Assembly (NCBI GenBank): GCA_965219685.1 | Contig: CBDCOH010000002.1 | Coordinates: 3,328,001 to 3,392,000, forward strand | Source of the DNA: Candidatus Spongiisociaceae bacterium | GTDB lineage: Bacteria; Actinomycetota; Acidimicrobiia; Spongiisociales; Spongiisociaceae | Reading direction: 5' to 3' | Length of the DNA: 64,000 nucleotides | In this document: positions 29,756 to 38,729 of the stretch, piece after piece | Numbering within the stretch: the stretch's first letter is position 1 | Layout: every line of letters starts with the position of its first letter | Program-made: the position numbers and the translations under genes | The notes under the pieces: generated by a model | What the model was told of the DNA's origin: nothing | What the model saw: only the letters and a program-made list of their open reading frames with translations | Databases searched by the model: none

Positions 29756-30427
29756 ATGCCGGACGTGAAACCGGTCCGGGATCTGCACGAATCTGCGGTC
29801 AGGCTTGCTCGTCTCGCCGAGCAGGTGCCCGCTCGGGCCCGCGGCGGATCGGTCCATCCGTCCGAACTGGTAGCAGGCATCAACGCCGAGTCAGATCTGG
29901 CCTGCCGACCGGGGCCCTTCGGACCGGTGGCCCCGAACCGCTTCGCGATACGGCTCAACAACGTGGACCTGGCGGCCCTGGGAAACCAGAGACGCGTGAC
30001 GCATGAACTGGAACGCATCACGGAAAGCACGGGGATGGGCAGAGGGCACCGCTTGGAGGGACCGGTCCGGGTCTGGTTGGAGGCGGACACCTCGACGGAG
30101 CAGGGGACGTTCGCCGTGCGGTCCTTCCACCGCCCCGGCCGCCGTCCGGCCTGGGCTTTCCTAACCGGTGGCGGGCCAACGCTGGAGATCACTGTCAACC
30201 GTTCCCTGGTGGGCCGGGCCGGCGACGCCGATGTCATCATCGCCCACGGCTCGGTCAGCGAACACCACGCCCTGGTCTGGTTCGAGGGGGAGAGCGCCTG
30301 GATACGGGACCAGGGTTCGAGCGGCGGCACCTTCGTCGATGGCGAGGCGGTCAGCGGGAACACGCCGGTTCCGGATGACGGCACGATCCGCTTCGGAAGG
30401 GTCGAGTACATGCTGCGGGTCGGGTAG
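29756..30427 (+). CDS. fhaA: FhaA-like protein (DUF3662-like N-terminus plus FHA domain)
   Basis: VHPSEL...VAPNRF N-domain; VGR...SEHHA...D.GS..GTFV FHA domain; first gene of the pknB cluster. Confidence 0.8.
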   Translation: MPDVKPVRDLHESAVRLARLAEQVPARARGGSVHPSELVAGINAESDLACRPGPFGPVAPNRFAIRLNNVDLAALGNQRRVTHELERITESTGMGRGHRLEGPVRVWLEADTSTEQGTFAVRSFHRPGRRPAWAFLTGGGPTLEITVNRSLVGRAGDADVIIAHGSVSEHHALVWFEGESAWIRDQGSSGGTFVDGEAVSGNTPVPDDGTIRFGRVEYMLRVG

Positions 30428-30430
30428 TCG

Positions 30431-30844
30431 ATGCCCGCGATCATCCTCGTCTCGCTGAAGCTCATCTTCGTGGCCTACATCTACCTGTTCGTATGGCAGA
30501 TCGCCAAGGCAATCGCCGCCCACATCGGCACCGGCCAGCCCCGTGAGCGCAGCCGCCCGGGAACCGGGCTGACGGTGGTCCGTAGCGATACCCAGACCGG
30601 ACTGAGCGTGGAGGTACGCCAGCCGGTGGTCCTGGGCAGGGCGAAGGGCGCGGACGTTCTCATCGACGACGCCTACGCTTCCGACTTCCACGTCAGGCTG
30701 GTCAACGACACGGGCGTACTGTCCCTGTTCGATCTCGGTAGCACCACCGGCACGTACGTGAACGGGAAGCGGGTTGGGGCTCCGCTGGAGCTGAGCAAGG
30801 GCGACTCGGTGCAGATCGGCAAGACCGTTCTGGAGGTGACGTGA
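30431..30844 (+). CDS. fhaB: FhaB/FipA-like membrane-anchored FHA protein
   Basis: N-terminal TM segment (LKLIFVAYIYLFVWQ), LGR...D.YAS..H, DLGST.GTYVNG. Confidence 0.85.
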   Translation: MPAIILVSLKLIFVAYIYLFVWQIAKAIAAHIGTGQPRERSRPGTGLTVVRSDTQTGLSVEVRQPVVLGRAKGADVLIDDAYASDFHVRLVNDTGVLSLFDLGSTTGTYVNGKRVGAPLELSKGDSVQIGKTVLEVT

Positions 30845-31572
30845 GATTCATCTGGGCTTCCGATACCCATACCGGCCGGACACGCAAGAACAACGAGGAC
30901 GCGGTGTATCCCGAGACCGACGGACACTGCTCGGAGCCTCTCCTGGTGGGTGTGGCGGACGGCCTCGGTGGTCACCGGGACGGTGAGGTCGCCAGCAGGG
31001 TGGCCATCGACAGCGCAGTCAGAGCGGAGGGTCCTCCCTGGCAGAAGGTCAAGGCCGCCAACGCCGCCATCCTGGACGACGTGCTGGACCATCCCCACCG
31101 CGTCGGTATGGGCACGACCCTCACACTGGCAGAACTCGACCCGGGCGGCCGCGCGACCATCGGTCACGTGGGGGACAGCCGGGCCTACCTGCTGCGGGCG
31201 GGAAGGCTCATCCGCCTGACGGTGGACCACACTTTCGTCCAGGAGGAGATCGAGGCGGGGCGCCTCACCGAGGAACAGGCCCGCATCCATCCCCGCCGCG
31301 CCCAACTCACCCGCGCCCTGGGACTCGGGCAGGAGGTGATCGTAGACGTCGGGAGAACCTCCCTCGCGCTCGACGATCGCCTGCTCGTCTGCTCGGACGG
31401 ACTGACCGCGATGGTCACGGACGACGAGATCACCGGCATCCTCGCAGAGGGCCCGCCGTCTGACGTGGTGTGGGGGTTGATCGAGGCGGCCAACCGGGCC
31501 GGGGGCCACGACAACGTGTCCGCGGTCGTGGTGGTGGTTACAGCACCTGAGGAACCCGACGGAGAGGACTAG
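30841..31572 (+). CDS. pstP: PP2C-type Ser/Thr phosphatase (soluble, no TM extension)
   Basis: GRTRKNNED, VADGLGGH, HVGDSRAY, CSDGL, GGHDN. Confidence 0.93.
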   Translation: MRFIWASDTHTGRTRKNNEDAVYPETDGHCSEPLLVGVADGLGGHRDGEVASRVAIDSAVRAEGPPWQKVKAANAAILDDVLDHPHRVGMGTTLTLAELDPGGRATIGHVGDSRAYLLRAGRLIRLTVDHTFVQEEIEAGRLTEEQARIHPRRAQLTRALGLGQEVIVDVGRTSLALDDRLLVCSDGLTAMVTDDEITGILAEGPPSDVVWGLIEAANRAGGHDNVSAVVVVVTAPEEPDGED

Positions 31573-31589
31573 ATGATCTGTCGTGATGG

Positions 31590-31774
31590 ATCCGACCGAA
31601 ACCGATCGCGCTGCGCGATCGGCGCGCAACGAAGTGCAATACACCTCTGACGCGTATACGTCAGTCTCCCTCGACGCGGATTCCCTCCCAGCTGTTCATG
31701 AAGGCCCCCTCGGCGCGACCCGAAACGCGGACGGTGCTACCGAGAGCCGGAAACGACTCGATCTAGGGCTGACC
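31590..31774 (+). repeat. Dispersed non-coding repeat family A, copy 2, followed by short A/C-rich heptamers (31791-31805)
   Basis: Aligns with 29483-29664; contains hairpins gatcgcg-ctg-cgcgatc and ctgacg-cgtata-cgtcag. Confidence 0.8.
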
Positions 31775-31875
31775 GCCGAGAGCCAGGAAGCAACCACCAA
31801 CCGCCAGGCCGGCAACCTGCCGATGTCCCGGGCCGCGGCCTCGGGCATCGATCGTCCCGACACAAGACCCTTCCG

Positions 31876-33168
31876 GTGAGCCGTACCGCCGAGGCCGTCC
31901 TGGTGCTGGCGGCCGCGGCCCTGGCGGCTTTCGGCGTCCTGCTGGTCAACTTCGCCAGGGGCGTGAACCTCAACGCGGACACCCCCGTGACGCTCCTGGT
32001 GTTCATCACCGTCTTCGGCGGCCTTCTGGCGGCCGTCAGATCGTGGGCCCCGCGCTCGGTACCGTTCCTGATCCCACTGGCGGCCACCCTTACCGCGGTA
32101 GGGTTCGTGATCCTGTACCGCCTCGACCATCAGTTGGCCGGCGTGCAGCGCTGGTGGCTGCTGACCAACGCCGGGCTGGCGGCGCTGTGGCTCTTCTCGG
32201 TCAGGACGAGAGGGATTCGCTCGCTGGCCCGCCACCGCTACGTCTTGCTGGCTGTGGCCGCGGTCCTCGCGTCGCTTCCCCTGATCCCTCCGGTCGAGGG
32301 TCTCCCGGTGCAGGGACTGCCGATCGACGGCTCCCGGCTCTGGGCGGAGTGGTCCTGGGGCGTTCAGATCCCGTTCCAGCCCGGCGAGGTGGCGAGGCTT
32401 CTCCTGGTCGTGTTCCTCGCCTCGTTTCTGTCGGAACACCAGACGGCTCTGAGCGCGGCGGGCCGGACGGCCGGGAGGCTCCGCCTCCCTCAACCCCGGG
32501 GCTTGGTACCCGCGGGGGTCGGCTGGCTCGCCAGCCTCGCGATCCTCCTGTACTTCAGGGACCTGGGCGCCTCCCTTCTGCTCGCCGCGGTGGTTCTGAC
32601 GATGCTGTACATAGCCACCAACAGACCCTCATACCTGGCGACGGGAGGCGGCCTCGTTGTGGCCGGTGTGTTCGTTGCCTACTTCGTGGTCGACCATGTA
32701 CGGGACCGCATCGACGCCTGGTTCGATCCATGGGCCAACCTCGACGGCGCCGGCCTCCAGACCGTCCAGGGGCTGTTCGCCCTAGCCGCCGGGAGCCTCT
32801 CCGGCACGGGCCTGGGCCTGGGCGAGCCGGGCCTGATTCCCACGGCGACCACCGGCTTCGTCTTCGCCGCTTCGGGGGAGGAGCTGGGTCTGGCAGGCTC
32901 CGTGGTGGTTCTGGCCGCGTACGCTCTACTGGTCGCGACGGGCTTCGGCATCGCTCTGCGCGCGAGGGACCTATTCAGAAAGCTGCTGGCCGCCGGTCTG
33001 TCCCTCACGCTGGGCTTCCAGACGCTGCTGGTTGTCGCCGGCGTGCTGCGGATCCTCCCGGTGACCGACATGACCGCCCCTTTCATGTCGGCGGGAGGCT
33101 CGTCGACGTTGGCCGGGTTCCTGCTCCTGGCGCTGCTGGCGCGGACCAGCCACGAGGAGCGCACGTGA
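31876..33168 (+). CDS. rodA: RodA/FtsW (SEDS) family protein; catalytic Asp apparently replaced by Gly
   Basis: FQPGE, DLGASLL, RI.AW.DPW, GTGLGLG, GEELG, PFMS.GGSS; TTGFVF in place of TDFIF. Confidence 0.92.
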   Translation: MSRTAEAVLVLAAAALAAFGVLLVNFARGVNLNADTPVTLLVFITVFGGLLAAVRSWAPRSVPFLIPLAATLTAVGFVILYRLDHQLAGVQRWWLLTNAGLAALWLFSVRTRGIRSLARHRYVLLAVAAVLASLPLIPPVEGLPVQGLPIDGSRLWAEWSWGVQIPFQPGEVARLLLVVFLASFLSEHQTALSAAGRTAGRLRLPQPRGLVPAGVGWLASLAILLYFRDLGASLLLAAVVLTMLYIATNRPSYLATGGGLVVAGVFVAYFVVDHVRDRIDAWFDPWANLDGAGLQTVQGLFALAAGSLSGTGLGLGEPGLIPTATTGFVFAASGEELGLAGSVVVLAAYALLVATGFGIALRARDLFRKLLAAGLSLTLGFQTLLVVAGVLRILPVTDMTAPFMSAGGSSTLAGFLLLALLARTSHEERT

Positions 33169-34301
33169 ACGGACCGATGCGACGCGTGGCGTTGGGCCTG
33201 TTCCTGGCCTTCCTGGTCCTGGCCCTGGATGTCACCTACTGGCAGATCATCGCCGCCGACCGGCTGCGGGAACACCCCCAGAACGCCCGCGCCCAGCTGG
33301 CCCGCTCAGGCCGGGAGAGGGGCCAGATCATCTCCTCCGACACGGTAGTGCTGGCCACATCGGTACCGGACCCCTCCGATCCCCGCTACTACGTCCGCGA
33401 GTATCCTCACGGGCCGCTGTACGCTCACACGGTGGGTTTCTCGTCCCCGCTGTTCGGTGACAGCGGCCTCGAGCGCTCTCAAGCCGGCGTCCTCACGTCG
33501 GGCCGAGACCTGACCGTCTCGGGGATCATCAACGCCCTCGTCGGCGAGGACCGGCGGGCCCGCTCCATCCAGATCACTTTGAACCACCGGCTGCAACGGA
33601 CCGCGGCGCGCGCGCTGGGCAGCCGGTACGGGGCGTTGGTTGCCATCGAGCCGACCACCGGACGCCTGCTCGCCCTTGCCAGTTCCCCGACGTTCGATCC
33701 CAACTTCCTGATCGGCGCCGAGGCCGCAACCGTGTGGAACACACTCGGCCGGGACCCCTCCCGCCCCCTCCAGAACCGAGCCACCGGAAGGTGGCTTCCG
33801 GGCGACCTCCTGCCCGCGGATGCGATCACCGGCATCCCCAGTGGTCCGGACACCAGCAGCGAATCGGCCTTCTCACTGGCTCTCAGGACGGCGGCCGTGG
33901 CGACCGGGGGTCAGCCGATGAGACCCTACGTGGTGGCCCGGGTGTTCGACCGGGATTCGCAACTCGAGTCCGAGACCGAACCGATCCCGTTCGCCCAGCG
34001 GCTCAGCGGCGAAGAAGTAGCCACCCTGCGTGACAGCATGGACGTGCTCGAGATCGACAGTGCCCGATTCGGCCCGATACGCGGCCTCGGTGCGTCCGGC
34101 ACCGACCGGGACCCATACGACCGCCAGCGTATCTGGTTCGTCGGTTTCCTCCCCCTGGGCCAGCCGGCCATCGCCGTGGCGGTGGTGATCGAGTCGGTGG
34201 CGGCGAGCGGATCCCGGGGCACTGGCACTGCGGAGGCCGCCTCGATCGGCAGGGCTGTCATGGTGGCCTGGCTGGACCAGCAGAGTCCGCTCGGTCGGTG
34301 A
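33165..34301 (+). CDS. pbpA: PbpA-like class B PBP with an internally deleted, motif-less transpeptidase domain
   Basis: TM, N.R....RG.I, R.YP.G.LYAH.VG, GA.VA.EP.TG..LA.AS.P.FDPN, PL.NRA are present. SxxK, SxN and KTG are not recognisable. Only 378 aa. Confidence 0.85.
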   Translation: MNGPMRRVALGLFLAFLVLALDVTYWQIIAADRLREHPQNARAQLARSGRERGQIISSDTVVLATSVPDPSDPRYYVREYPHGPLYAHTVGFSSPLFGDSGLERSQAGVLTSGRDLTVSGIINALVGEDRRARSIQITLNHRLQRTAARALGSRYGALVAIEPTTGRLLALASSPTFDPNFLIGAEAATVWNTLGRDPSRPLQNRATGRWLPGDLLPADAITGIPSGPDTSSESAFSLALRTAAVATGGQPMRPYVVARVFDRDSQLESETEPIPFAQRLSGEEVATLRDSMDVLEIDSARFGPIRGLGASGTDRDPYDRQRIWFVGFLPLGQPAIAVAVVIESVAASGSRGTGTAEAASIGRAVMVAWLDQQSPLGR

Positions 34302-34464
34302 TGCCGCCGAGGACGGGAACCTGCCCATCGTCGTCGGTGAAGGAGCCTTCGCGCCCCTCCGCGCGGGCGTGCCAGGCCAACCGCGACCCTGGCGCCGCAG
34401 AGGTGGCCCCCGGCACGACATGGCGAAGGATTCCCCCGGCGGAGCACTAGATTCAGGGGTGGTC

Positions 34465-36609
34465 ATGGACTCACCACATTCTCTAGGAAGGTACGACCTC
34501 ACGGCCCACCTGGCTCGGGGCGGTATGGCGGACGTGTTCGAGGCGTCCGATCGGATGCTGGACCGGCGCGTCGCGGTCAAGATCCTGCACCAGCGCTACG
34601 CCGAAACCGACACGTTCGTCGCACGATTCCGCAAGGAGGCCCAGGCCGCCGCCAACCTCAGCCACCCCAACATCGTTTCCATCTACGACTGGGGTGAGCA
34701 GGAGGGGACCTACTTCATCGTGATGGAACTCGTCAAGGGTCGTTCCCTGCGTGACGTGGTGAAGTCGGAGGGCAAGATCCTGCCACGGCGGGCCGCGGAG
34801 ATCGCCAGCGAGGTCTCCTCAGCGCTGGAGGTGGCGCATCGCAACCGGGTGATCCACCGGGACATCAAACCCGGAAACATCCTCCTCTCGGAGGACGGCA
34901 TCGTCAAGGTCACCGACTTCGGCGTGGCTCGCGCCTGGGATGACTCGGAGGATCTCACCAAGACCGGCGCGGTCATCGGAACCGCCACCTACTTCAGCCC
35001 CGAGCAGGCCCGCGGCGACCCGGCGGACGAACGTTCCGACATCTACAGCCTGGGCGTGGTGCTCTACGAGATGCTGGTCGGACGACCGCCCTTCAGCGGG
35101 GAAACCCCCGTCTCGGTGGCCTACCAGCACGTCACCGCCGAGGTGCCCGTGCCTAGCCGCCTCAACCCGGACGTACCGCCGGAGTTGGAGGCGATCGTGA
35201 TGAAAAGCCTCGCCAAGGATCCTGCCCGGCGTTACGAAGCAGCAGCCGACATCCGTCGCGACCTCCTGCTGTTCCTCCAGGGAAGGAAGCCTCCCAGGCC
35301 CTCTCCGGCCCCGCCGCGACCTGCCCAACCCCAGCGAGGCCGCAGGCCCGACCTCCCGCCTCCCACCGTTGCGCCTGACGAGGCGTACCGGAGGTTGCAT
35401 GCCACCCCCCGTCAGCCGTCACAGGTGCCTTTCATCATCACCTCGATAGCCCTGGCCGCCCTCGTCGTGGTCGGGGTCTGGTACCTGTTCAACGTGATCA
35501 CGGACCAGCCGGACGAGACGACCACGACGACCGGCGTGCGGATGGTTGTCGTGCCGCCCGTGAGCGGAAGGCTGGAGGACGAGGCTATCCAGATGCTCCA
35601 GGAGGCCGGTCTTTTCGTGGTTCCGGAGGGCGAGGCGGGCGACGCCGAGGCCGGCACCGTGCTGCGGACCGAGCCGGGTGCCGGAGCGGAACTCGAGGCG
35701 GGCGAGCGGGTAACGATGGTGGTCTCCATCGGACCCGTACAGATCCAGATACCCAACGTGGTCGGCTCGACGCAGGAGAGGGCCGAGAGTTCGCTCGAAG
35801 GGTTGGGATTCGGGGTAGATCCGCGGACCATCCGGCACGACACCATCGGTGCCGGACTGGTCGTCTCCCAGGATCCTCCCGGTGGGGCCAGCGCGCCGAG
35901 GGGGTCCACGGTGGAACTCGTGGTGTCGGCAGGACCGGAGCCGATCCAGATGCCCCGCGTGACCGGCCTGACCAGCGATCGGGCCGAGGGCAGGCTCGAG
36001 GGTCTGGACCTGGAGGTCGAACTCGTCACCACCTTCCACGACGAGGTGGAAGAAGGGCTGGTGATAAGCCAGAGCCCGGCGCCTGGCGCCGACATCAATC
36101 CCGGTTGGACCGTTCAAATCGTCGTGTCGAGCGGCCCTGAGGAGACCGAGGTCGAACTCGAGGATCTGTCGGGGAGGTCGATCGGCGATGCGACCGCATG
36201 GCTGGAGGAGTCAGGCTTCGAGGCGGTCATCGAGCAGGAGAGCAGCCGGGAGGTCGAGGCAGGCTCGGTCATCCGGACGGAGCCGCCGGGAGGCACCTCG
36301 CTCGAGCCCGGATCCCGGGTGGTGGTCGTGGAGTCCACCGGATCGCCGTTCATCGCCGTACCCGACCTCACCGGCTCCACCATCGAGGACGCGGAGGCTA
36401 CGCTGAGCGACCTGGGCCTTTTGCTGGAGGTTGCCAACTCGCCACGTTCGGTCGACGACCCCAGCCTGGACGGCAGGGTCGTCCGGCAAGCCCCGAGTCC
36501 CGGAGAGGAGTTGCTCGAGGGCGAGGCGGTGCTGGCGGTACTCGGCGAGTACTCCCCGGAGCCAACGCAGCCGCAGGACGGCAACGACGAGGAATCGGAG
36601 ACCGCATGA
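34465..36609 (+). CDS. pknB: PASTA-domain Ser/Thr kinase with five PASTA repeats
   Basis: GGMADV, VAVK, HRDIKPGN, DFG, GTATYFSPEQ, TM segment, five VP.V.G-type PASTA repeats. Confidence 0.96.
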   Translation: MDSPHSLGRYDLTAHLARGGMADVFEASDRMLDRRVAVKILHQRYAETDTFVARFRKEAQAAANLSHPNIVSIYDWGEQEGTYFIVMELVKGRSLRDVVKSEGKILPRRAAEIASEVSSALEVAHRNRVIHRDIKPGNILLSEDGIVKVTDFGVARAWDDSEDLTKTGAVIGTATYFSPEQARGDPADERSDIYSLGVVLYEMLVGRPPFSGETPVSVAYQHVTAEVPVPSRLNPDVPPELEAIVMKSLAKDPARRYEAAADIRRDLLLFLQGRKPPRPSPAPPRPAQPQRGRRPDLPPPTVAPDEAYRRLHATPRQPSQVPFIITSIALAALVVVGVWYLFNVITDQPDETTTTTGVRMVVVPPVSGRLEDEAIQMLQEAGLFVVPEGEAGDAEAGTVLRTEPGAGAELEAGERVTMVVSIGPVQIQIPNVVGSTQERAESSLEGLGFGVDPRTIRHDTIGAGLVVSQDPPGGASAPRGSTVELVVSAGPEPIQMPRVTGLTSDRAEGRLEGLDLEVELVTTFHDEVEEGLVISQSPAPGADINPGWTVQIVVSSGPEETEVELEDLSGRSIGDATAWLEESGFEAVIEQESSREVEAGSVIRTEPPGGTSLEPGSRVVVVESTGSPFIAVPDLTGSTIEDAEATLSDLGLLLEVANSPRSVDDPSLDGRVVRQAPSPGEELLEGEAVLAVLGEYSPEPTQPQDGNDEESETA

Positions 36610-37538
36610 AACCGGTGGCAAGCCACCTTGCGCCGAGCCCGACCGGCAGCGAGCCGGCCGTGACCATCACCGACGCCGTGTTCCGCTACGGGAGCGAGGT
36701 GGTGCTCGATCGCTCCAGCCTTGCCATAGAACCCGGGACGATCACCGCCCTCATCGGTCCTAACGGCGCAGGGAAGTCCACGCTCCTCAACGGGATCGCC
36801 GGCCTGATCCCCCTGTCGGAGGGCCGAGTGGAGCTTGGAAGGGCCAATGGCCGGCCCTTGCGCCTTTCGTACGTGTTGCAGGACACCAAGATCAACCAGT
36901 CGCTTCCGGTCACGGTTCGCGAGGTGGTGAGCATGGGCCGCTACCCCGGCAAGGGACCCATCAGACCCCTCTCCAAGCGTGACCGGCAACTCGTGGACAA
37001 GGTGATGGAGCGAACGAACATCAGCCATCTGGCCAAGCGCCACCTGTCACGGTTGTCGGGAGGACAGCGCCACCGCGTGCTCCTGGCCCAAGGCTTGGTC
37101 CAGGAGCACGAGATCCTGCTGCTCGACGAGCCGGCGACCGGACTCGACCTGGTGTCTATCCAAGCCATAAGGGACACGGTGCGCGAGGAGGCCAACATCG
37201 GATGCACGGTGATTCTCACCACCCACGACATGGCCGACGCTTGGACAGCCGACTACGTGGTGTTGCTTGCCGGAAGGGTGGTCACGAGCGGCCCGCCCGA
37301 GGAAGTCCTCCAGTCGTCCCACCTCATCGAGGCCTACGGAACCGCCCTGCTGAACGTGGACGGAACCCACCTCCTCCTGGACGATCCGCATCACGACCAC
37401 CCCGACTCTCACCAGCCGACCATGCGATCGATCAGCGTGGAGACATGGGAATGGCTCCGCGAGGAGATCCCCCGGCTACTCGGCGCTTCGCCCGAGGACA
37501 TGATCGCGGGCAGGGACAAGACGACAGAACCTGAATAG
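36606..37538 (+). CDS. Metal (Zn/Mn) ABC transporter ATP-binding protein (ZnuC/AztA-like)
   Basis: GPNGAGKST, LPVTVREVVSMGRY, LSGGQ, LDEP, THD, His-rich tail DDPHHDH. Confidence 0.9.
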   Translation: MKPVASHLAPSPTGSEPAVTITDAVFRYGSEVVLDRSSLAIEPGTITALIGPNGAGKSTLLNGIAGLIPLSEGRVELGRANGRPLRLSYVLQDTKINQSLPVTVREVVSMGRYPGKGPIRPLSKRDRQLVDKVMERTNISHLAKRHLSRLSGGQRHRVLLAQGLVQEHEILLLDEPATGLDLVSIQAIRDTVREEANIGCTVILTTHDMADAWTADYVVLLAGRVVTSGPPEEVLQSSHLIEAYGTALLNVDGTHLLLDDPHHDHPDSHQPTMRSISVETWEWLREEIPRLLGASPEDMIAGRDKTTEPE

Positions 37539-37566
37539 TGAGTGGTGAATCGTGAATGGTGAATGG
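37532..37566. repeat. Heptamer array (TGAATGG)x5 containing the stop codon of the metal ABC ATPase
   Basis: tgaatag tgagtgg tgaatcg tgaatgg tgaatgg. Confidence 0.88.
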
Positions 37567-37717: not shown

Positions 37718-37780
37718 ACTCACCACTCACCACTCACCACTCACCACTCACCACTCACCATTTACCACTCACCACTCACG
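37718..37780. repeat. Heptamer array (ACTCACC)x9, inverted relative to 37532-37566; contains the trpG stop
   Basis: actcacc x6, atttacc, actcacc, actcacg. Confidence 0.93.
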
Positions 37781-38422: not shown

Positions 38423-38668
38423 ATGCCGCAATCCAAGGGACGCCGCAAAGCCAAGACGGTGCGGAGACCGACGCCGCCCAAGAGCGCGTCCGGAGGCAAG
38501 CGTGCCAAGCAGTCGCCGAAGATCTACGTTGCGATCATGTTCGGCCTGATGGTCTTGGGCGTGCTGATGGTCGTCACCCGCTATATCCTCGACACCCCCT
38601 CATGGCTTCTGCTGGCAGGGCTCGGATGCATGGGTGCCGGCTTCCTGATGACCACCAACTATCACTGA
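38423..38668 (+). CDS. crgA: Cell division protein CrgA
   Basis: MPQSKGR basic N-terminus, SP motif, two TM segments, GFLMTTNY C-terminus; canonical position opposite trpG. Confidence 0.88.
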   Translation: MPQSKGRRKAKTVRRPTPPKSASGGKRAKQSPKIYVAIMFGLMVLGVLMVVTRYILDTPSWLLLAGLGCMGAGFLMTTNYH

Positions 38669-38729
38669 GTGGTAAGTGGTGAATGGTGAATGGTGAATGG
38701 TTAGCACTCCACCAGCCACCAGCCACCAA
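38666..38729. repeat. Facing heptamer arrays (TGARTGG)x5 and (CCACCAG)x3
   Basis: tgagtgg taagtgg tgaatgg x3 starting at the crgA stop; ccaccag ccaccag ccaccaa at 38709-38729. Confidence 0.88.

Follow-up and report, generated by a model that had tools for sequence, protein, structure and literature searches.

A RodA–PbpA pair lacking the catalytic residues of both partners is retained beside PknB in a clade of Acidimicrobiia as a probable pseudoenzyme complex

We analyzed a 64,000-nt stretch of DNA (hereafter the window) from Candidatus Spongiisociaceae bacterium (contig CBDCOH010000002.1, positions 3,328,001-3,392,000 of the forward strand), focusing on a RodA–PbpA gene pair that lies within a Ser/Thr-kinase module for cell wall signaling. 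Pfam assignments to the window's proteins recover the usual actinobacterial gene order of this module, fhaA-fhaB-pstP-rodA-pbpA-pknB, with the FHA proteins, the PP2C phosphatase, and the PASTA kinase all in sequence. The rodA gene (31876..33168, + strand) encodes a putative SEDS pseudo-glycosyltransferase of 430 amino acids (aa; P0001), and pbpA (33165..34301, + strand) encodes a truncated penicillin-binding protein of class B (bPBP) with 378 aa (P0002) that begins with a GTG codon at 33165; the stop of the first gene and the start of the second overlap by 4 nt, both here and in all 30 of the related loci examined first. SEDS–bPBP pairs are regarded as the central enzymes by which bacteria grow their wall and divide, and as major drug targets. 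An earlier note, made from the letters of this DNA, had proposed that the pair is catalytically dead in both halves and yet kept as intact, coupled reading frames, either as a non-catalytic complex or as a pair in decay in a lineage that had dropped this mode of wall synthesis. As we describe below, comparison with characterized proteins and with related genomes bears out the loss of the catalytic residues and argues for retention rather than decay.

The RodA protein belongs to the SEDS fold by a wide margin (PF01098, 186.4 bits over residues 99-429, against a cut-off of 26.4), and it falls under the NCBIfam equivalog cut-offs for both specialized families (ftsW TIGR02614, 206 against 337.5; rodA TIGR02210, 145 against 336.7). 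What it does not have is the catalytic Asp of extracellular loop 4, the Asp of the TDF motif, corresponding to D297 of E. coli FtsW. When phmmer aligns RodA with E. coli MrdB (8tj3_B) and with P. aeruginosa FtsW (25hr_A/8bh1_A), the Asp of HTDF is matched by Gly327 (GGC, 32854-32856, + strand), with the query segment ptattgfvfaasgeelgl lying over perhtdfifavlaeelgl and peahtdfvfavlaeelg; the Gly reported in the earlier note thus stands at the SEDS Asp. For 8 positions on either side of Gly327, the window's RodA has no acidic residue. A displaced catalytic acid was considered at the Glu or Asp of the IP[DE] segment found in some clade members (the clade is defined below), and was rejected, as this residue matches the non-catalytic Glu of LPE in the E. 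coli and P. aeruginosa SEDS proteins. To place the Asp among other losses, we defined 43 columns that are invariant over 10 active SEDS proteins (8 orthologues with a full-length PbpA partner, together with the two paralogues of this genome). Six of these columns are lost in the clade, being kept in at most 5 of its 19 members, and they include D327 and D288; another 17 columns are retained by 17 or more of the 19. The second of the named losses is Asn288 in the window (32737-32739, + strand), likewise in extracellular loop 4; all 10 active proteins compared have Asp there, and only 2 of the 19 clade members keep it. At the other end of the protein, a cytoplasmic C-terminal tail reading A-R-T-S-H-E-E-R-T (33139-33165, + strand) is conserved equally in the clade and in active orthologues. 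Its general form, A-R-x-S-H-E-E-R-[TVA], occurs in live and dead orthologues and is absent from the FtsW and MreB-linked RodA of the same genome, which points to a cytoplasmic contact specific to the SEDS protein of the PknB operon and makes the tail a candidate contact site for the kinase or the FHA proteins.

Three motifs form the transpeptidase site of a bPBP: SxxK, with its Ser nucleophile and its Lys, SxN, and KTG. PbpA has none of the three. Aligned to M. tuberculosis PbpA (3un7_A), it matches in two blocks (query 35-214 on chain 6-193, and query 217-370 on chain 298-458), leaving about 104 residues of the M. tuberculosis chain without a counterpart. At the end of the first block, PGD lies over PGS, so that Asp214 (33804-33806, + strand) occupies the site of the nucleophilic Ser and PGD-LLP replaces PGS-xxK. 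There follows a poorly conserved linker (33807-33860, + strand) in place of the roughly 105-110 residues that hold the SxxK helix, the SxN loop, and the helical subdomain of the long orthologues, and further on Ala310-Ser311-Gly312 (34092-34100, + strand) replaces KTG, with gasgt aligned over sktgt. This alignment upholds what had been read from the letters: the Asp for Ser, the missing SxN, the altered KTG, and the length of 378 aa. Because PbpA contains 0 Lys residues, neither SxxK nor KTG is possible anywhere in it, and the displaced Ser-x-x-Lys that the earlier note had left open as a way out is ruled out on the same ground. Consistent with a partial domain, the Pfam Transpeptidase family (PF00905, 39.9 bits) is matched only at profile positions 165-298 of 299. 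The N-terminal half is a different matter, with a transmembrane (TM) helix and a complete PBP_dimer_2 pedestal (PF21922, 57.9 bits, profile 1-82 of 83), and residues 1-210 are conserved as in active orthologues, as the earlier note's remark on well-kept TM and pedestal regions had it. An AlphaFold2 (AF2) model of PbpA (mean predicted local distance difference test score, pLDDT, 85.1; predicted TM-score, pTM, 0.81) has a TM helix at 3-35, the pedestal, and a compact alpha/beta remnant of the transpeptidase domain, with a dip in pLDDT to 61-77 over the linker. The top Foldseek matches of this model are the M. tuberculosis PbpA entries (E 1e-24).

An assembly or binning artefact confined to one genome would be the most trivial explanation for such a sequence, and its probability is negligible. 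A contig from a sponge metagenome sequenced in another study (X5) spans the whole of 31876-34301 (2426 bases) and shows 53 substitutions but 0 gaps, the Gly codon at 32854-32856 being untouched by any listed difference, and contigs from a coral metagenome (X6) cover both 32708-32984, which includes that codon, and 33773-34301, which includes the deletion junction. These two metagenomes make up the habitat evidence; no RNA run was listed in the search of sequencing runs, a result that is neutral as to transcription. In a public collection of proteins, about 36 clusters with lengths of 367-380 aa are 50-99% identical to PbpA, and 18 further genomes have the short form. Among the public orthologues, one at 96% identity stands on the record MAG: bacterium isolate RHO1_bin_3 (MAG, metagenome-assembled genome), one at 63% on MAG: Candidatus Spongiisociaceae bacterium, and a short form at 51% carries the name Candidatus Spongiisocius sp. 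(Acidimicrobiia, Candidatus Spongiisociales); a literature search on the name Spongiisocius found nothing. Neither a GAC codon nor a full-length transpeptidase domain, either of which would have marked the window's version as an artefact, was seen in the contigs from other studies or in close relatives. The artefact reading is refuted.

The distribution of the altered pair was followed in 41 related genomes, both genes being extracted from 30 loci at first and 11 more stretches being added later. The locus is present in 40 of the 41; no match was found in G012, which is 72% complete. Nineteen genomes, in three genera (g1, g4, and g7), have a short PbpA that is 41-96% identical to that of the window and 366-380 aa long in the 18 complete cases, the remaining one running off its contig. 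In all 19 the frames are without stops and rodA and pbpA overlap by 4 nt, and in none of them is SxxK, SxN, or KTG present. The catalytic Asp is missing from 18 of the 19 (5 Gly, 10 Ser, 3 Arg), with Asp in G019. The codons in this column are GGN, AGC or AGT, and CGG; each is one step from Gly, which is itself one step from GAC. The long-form genomes, also 19 (PbpA class of 463-489 aa), keep PGSxFK, SCN, and KTG throughout, and their RodA has Asp (GAC or GAT) in 18 of 18 examined, the RodA of G037, on another contig, being outside the count. Two of these comparators (G028 and G039) are unpublished and entered the motif, tree, codon-model, and close-pair analyses, the last including the pair G028-G039; the remaining 17 have the same motifs as the full set. 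One long-form genome, G008, has two RodA–PbpA copies (contigs C70 and C86), both with intact motifs; its stated contamination is 8%, and the second copy may come from another organism.

Two further genomes, forming the genus g3, occupy a position in between. Their PbpA is of full length (463-471 aa), with SAFY or SVFT for SxxK and SCG or SCD for SxN; in G014 ASG also replaces KTG and the SEDS column holds Glu, while in G009 that column holds Asp. In a maximum-likelihood (ML) tree of the concatenated proteins (deleted columns excluded, and a row with a partial SEDS sequence left out), the short forms make up one clade (100/100) whose sister is g3 (97/98). The earlier note had suggested looking for the same Asp change and deletion in related Acidimicrobiia, and they are indeed common to this monophyletic set of 19 genomes, which we refer to as the dead clade. 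Because the sister genus is intermediate, with a full-length PbpA and a degenerate site, the simplest history would be that the transpeptidase site was lost first, that the deletion and the loss of the Asp followed at or near the base of the clade, and that the Asp position then drifted. Outside these genomes, the best 150 representatives from a library of 1.84 billion proteins comprise 144 with Asp in the column, 2 fragments that stop short of it, 3 without Asp (Gly, Ser, and Ser; 44-55% identical) that apparently belong to the same clade, and P0193, a protein of 425 aa, 37% identical to the window's SEDS protein, with Gln in the column. P0193 may represent an independent second dead SEDS protein; a search for its genomic source returned best matches of only 36-43% identity among 301 genomes from the class, which include the unpublished G284, and of 38% among contigs of metagenomes.

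Both genes of the dead clade show the marks of purifying selection. Under codon models, omega (dN/dS, the ratio of nonsynonymous to synonymous rates) is 0.152 for RodA and, within PbpA, 0.093 over codons 1-205 and 0.155 over the remnant at the C-terminus, and omega=1 is rejected in each partition (2dlnL 1867, 1356, and 561, respectively). The trees behind these values are long, at 14-22 substitutions per codon, and we therefore used close pairs for unsaturated estimates: in seven dead-clade pairs with a RodA dS of 0.1-0.4, Nei-Gojobori dN/dS is 0.13-0.25 for RodA, 0.06-0.31 for the N-terminal part of PbpA, and 0.05-0.47 for the C-terminal part, compared with 0.08-0.35 in long-form pairs and a lower 0.035-0.21 in the PknB kinase domain. 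Codon-model values for the long forms (0.015-0.048) had been considered as a baseline and were dropped, the trees being saturated at 21-65 substitutions per codon. With frames free of stops in 19 of 19 genomes and omega at 0.09-0.16, the genes are not pseudogenes, and the dN/dS near 1 that would have pointed to simple decay was not found. The earlier note's proposal of a pair kept in non-catalytic form rather than decaying accordingly gains support from a clade of 19 genomes with coupled reading frames.

The constraint is unevenly spread. Expressed as the ratio of conservation in the dead clade to that in active orthologues, PbpA 1-210 (TM helix and pedestal) stands at about 0.9-1.9, while the segments of the former active-site frame (211-240, 286-315, and 346-360) have fallen to 0.42-0.48. 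The RodA ratio is 0.8-1.2 for residues 331-390 and for the C-terminal tail, and 0.4-0.7 for 106-240, 271-300, and 316-330, which include the loop of the former Asp. A structural model of the RodA–PbpA complex, computed with each protein's own alignment, gives an ipSAE of 0.83, the best of 3 controls reaching 0.00; for scale, 58 of 80 solved complexes attain the 0.83 mark, as do 2 of 110 mismatched pairs. At least 94% of contacts are common to the runs, and the partner pLDDT is at least 73. The predicted interface joins PbpA 1-45 to RodA 334-393 and to parts of 242-249 and 286-308, and is that of a canonical bPBP TM helix on TM8-TM9 and loop 4 of a SEDS protein. The two adjacent, co-oriented genes, together with this modeled TM-helix/TM8-9 and pedestal interface, are what one would expect of a cognate SEDS–bPBP pair, and the model is consistent with an independent finding, namely that the same interface segments kept their conservation.

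Loss of catalysis at this locus does not leave the genome without wall synthases, of which it holds, in total, three SEDS genes and four genes with a transpeptidase domain. The FtsW of its division and cell wall (dcw) cluster reads HTDFIF, and the FtsI there reads PGSTQK, SSN, and KTGT; a second RodA (TTDFIF) adjoins a PBP2 (PASTFK, SCN, KTGT) and mreB; and a further intact penicillin-binding protein has a transpeptidase domain with PGSAFK, SVN, and KTGT. These intact FtsW–FtsI and RodA–PBP2 pairs also settled another candidate, a change from Tyr to Ala at the SYGG motif as a second inactivating change in RodA. In the part of PMC8765783 that treats this mutant, E. coli FtsW Y379A is non-functional; the intact FtsW and MreB-linked RodA of the present genome read SVGG and SAGG, and the candidate was rejected. 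With FtsW–FtsI, the MreB-linked RodA–PBP2, and the further penicillin-binding protein all intact, wall synthesis appears, on sequence, to be covered, and the earlier suggestion that the lineage had dropped this mode of wall synthesis does not hold. Three SEDS matches are found in 37 of the 41 related genomes whether the third pair is live or dead; because three also occur where that pair is live, inactivation of the pair did not come after a spare copy had been gained. The M. tuberculosis genome, unlike the one considered here, presumably has no MreB-linked pair.

Several known systems provide points of comparison. The RodA–PbpA of M. tuberculosis (fhaA-fhaB-pstP-rodA-pbpA-pknA-pknB; structures 3lo7 and 3un7) lies in the same gene order except for pknA, and its PbpA, which is among the best Protein Data Bank sequence matches of the window's PbpA (E 8e-33), has the same architecture of TM helix, PBP_dimer_2, and transpeptidase. 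The M. tuberculosis protein keeps SxxK, SxN, and KTG, with structures that include beta-lactam acyl-enzyme complexes, whereas the window's PbpA is without all three and without about 104 residues, and its RodA partner is without the Asp. The long-form orthologues, found in 19 genomes of the same taxonomic order, share the locus, the 4-nt overlap, the SHEER tail of RodA, and the PknB gene, and differ in keeping PGSxFK, SCN, KTG, and TDF. Streptomyces has the same operon in the SCO3846-SCO3847 pair beside PknB and also has MreB, and its operon penicillin-binding protein is reported in a spore-wall synthesizing complex, according to the sections of PMC6273383 concerned with that complex. Precedents for loss of activity with retention of other roles are engineered: as far as the relevant passages of the two papers go, the D297A variant of E. 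coli FtsW fails to complement and acts as a dominant negative, yet it localizes, binds FtsI, and binds lipid II (PMC8765783), and transpeptidase-dead B. subtilis PBP2b and a C. difficile bPBP still fill a structural role (PMC12516126). Those variants are laboratory point mutants of one partner that are toxic or need a back-up enzyme, whereas here both partners are, to all appearances, naturally dead, with a large deletion, and the state is fixed in a clade. Relatives of bPBPs without a working transpeptidase do not seem to be rare, because a survey counts 2572 proteins with a pedestal but without a canonical transpeptidase domain, in many phyla including Actinomycetota (PMC12516126); the window's PbpA differs from such pedestal-only proteins in that it keeps half of the transpeptidase fold and passes the Pfam cut-off, and so may lie outside that list. 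In the literature searched, which included passages of PMC12516126 apart from its supplementary tables, we found neither a naturally Asp-less SEDS protein nor a doubly dead pair.

Taking these observations together, we favor, as reasonably probable, the view that the pair is a selectively kept pseudoenzyme complex of the PknB module, serving as a non-catalytic docking or regulatory element in the membrane. We infer from the published data on E. coli FtsW D297A, which had lost function and kept partner binding, that the pair makes no peptidoglycan yet still assembles in the membrane. The events we envisage would run as follows. The third SEDS–bPBP pair of an Acidimicrobiia genome would have become a pseudoenzyme pair in one clade of three genera. 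In PbpA the nucleophile, the general-base Lys, SxN, KTG, and the entire helical half of the transpeptidase domain are gone, and RodA is without the catalytic Asp and several other loop residues invariant in active SEDS proteins. Peptidoglycan polymerization and cross-linking would be done instead by FtsW–FtsI, the MreB-linked RodA–PBP2, and the further penicillin-binding protein. Both genes have stayed translationally coupled and under purifying selection, with the constraint concentrated on the parts needed for assembly (the TM helix and pedestal of PbpA, and TM8-TM9 of RodA) and on the cytoplasmic tail of RodA, and the non-catalytic complex would act as a docking or regulatory element for wall signaling through PknB, PstP, FhaA, and FhaB, where it may still bind lipid II or the partners of the active synthases. 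A role of this kind is the most economical one because of the gene order, the occurrence of a PknB kinase domain on 29 of the 30 loci retrieved, and the conserved cytoplasmic tail, although any signaling or regulatory function of the pair is speculative.

A more specific form of the same proposal is one we hold only tentatively. The doubly dead complex would have been exapted into Ser/Thr-kinase wall signaling, assembling through its TM helix and pedestal, turning its tail to PknB, PstP, and the FHA proteins, binding lipid II or the partners of the live synthases, and so sensing or braking the growth of the wall in sponge symbionts that grow slowly; g3 would then preserve the intermediate, with a dead transpeptidase and an Asp-bearing polymerase.

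Several points weigh against the pseudoenzyme complex. Two genomes with a dead PbpA, G019 and g3 G009, keep the Asp, and RodA activity may persist in some members such as these. Gene order is the whole of the case for the link to PknB. The codon-model omega values come from trees with a total length of 14-22 substitutions per codon; measured against the PknB kinase domain, dN is about 2-8x for pairs of the dead clade, compared with about 2x for pairs of long forms, and Pfam scores drop from 218-247 to 109-196 bits in the clade. Constraint is therefore relaxed, yet clearly present, and part of the protein may be drifting. Finally, because homologous complexes have been solved, the score of the modeled complex amounts to likeness to the canonical interface rather than proof of it, and may reflect memory of the SEDS–bPBP structures (6pl5, 8tj3, 8bh1).

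The first of these points bears on the possibility that the pair is still enzymatic, with RodA polymerizing or translocating a lipid-linked substrate through other residues, or acting as a flippase-like carrier of lipid II, and PbpA serving only as its allosteric activator, a role known for bPBP pedestals. At least 17 of 19 members retain the fold, the TM core, and many residues invariant in SEDS proteins (E171, D229, W156, and the EE.G..G motif), the pedestal, which is the SEDS-activating part, is the best conserved part of PbpA, the Asp survives in G019, and in B. subtilis and C. difficile engineered bPBPs with a dead transpeptidase can still support the SEDS protein they partner (PMC12516126). 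Set against this, the Asp column holds Gly, Ser, Arg, and Asp within the clade, reached by single-base steps via Gly, as fits an unconstrained site; the vicinity of Gly327 offers no acidic substitute and the second loop Asp, D288, is lost as well; and the corresponding D297A mutant of E. coli FtsW is non-functional in the account that PMC8765783 gives of it. On balance, continued enzymatic activity strikes us as unlikely. We would put at about the same low level a built-in competitor, in which the dead pair titrates lipid II or the partners of the elongasome or divisome and slows wall growth to an extent set by PknB and PstP. The dominant-negative effect of engineered dead FtsW, which still binds its partner and lipid II (PMC8765783, the portion on this mutant), speaks for it, as do the retention of the pair beside a kinase/phosphatase module and the near-identical sequences in sponge and coral metagenomes, with relatives bearing a sponge-symbiont name and slow growth plausible. 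Residues lining the SEDS cavity are partly degenerate, however, so lipid II binding is not assured, and a competitor of this sort would be a special and bolder version of the pseudoenzyme complex rather than a true alternative to it. By far the least probable of the biological readings is slow decay, with the genes as functionless relics whose frames have so far remained unbroken. It draws on the loss of the catalytic residues, the raised rate relative to the neighboring kinase, and the lower family scores, but the frames are uninterrupted in 19 of 19 genomes (one PbpA running off a contig end) and the 4-nt overlap is preserved although dS climbs to about 0.8-1.3 between the more distant of the pairs measured; omega=1 is rejected for each of the three partitions, and close pairs have a dN/dS of 0.05-0.47. 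Simple decay is excluded.

If the pseudoenzyme complex is real, its interest would go beyond this clade. The non-catalytic roles of SEDS–bPBP pairs (scaffolding, allosteric activation, and binding of partners or substrate) have so far been split from catalysis only by engineered point mutants, whereas here the separation would be a natural one that affects the two partners together, is kept by selection in three genera, and has an intermediate in a sister genus. It would provide a natural system for asking what function such a complex has apart from peptidoglycan synthesis, why the pair resides in the PknB/PstP/FHA operon throughout Actinomycetota, and which of its surfaces serve assembly and which chemistry. 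On the practical side, genome surveys that count domain hits of RodA and PBP2 will overcount active synthases.

The remaining genes of the module, all on the + strand, are as follows. It begins with fhaA (29756..30427), which encodes an FhaA_N domain and an FHA domain (PF12401, 44.3 bits; PF00498, 52.4 bits), followed by fhaB (30431..30844), encoding a membrane-anchored FHA protein (PF00498, 61 bits), and a pstP-like gene (30841..31572) for a PP2C Ser/Thr phosphatase (Pfam PP2C/PP2C_2/SpoIIE). Between the phosphatase and SEDS genes lie about 300 bases without a called gene (31573-31875), whereas elsewhere in the module neighboring genes abut or overlap; rodA and pbpA may have a promoter of their own in this gap. 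Downstream of the pair, pknB (34369..36609; Pkinase, 183.3 bits) encodes a Ser/Thr kinase whose true start may lie a few codons downstream of the one called. Pfam finds five PASTA repeats in this kinase, one more than the four of M. tuberculosis PknB. The module is followed by genes for an ABC ATPase and a GATase and by crgA. Around the GATase and crgA genes there are intergenic tandem arrays of heptanucleotides at 37532-37566, 37718-37779, and 38666-38701, two of which are TGAATGG x5, separated by about 1.1 kb, and one ACTCACC x8.9.

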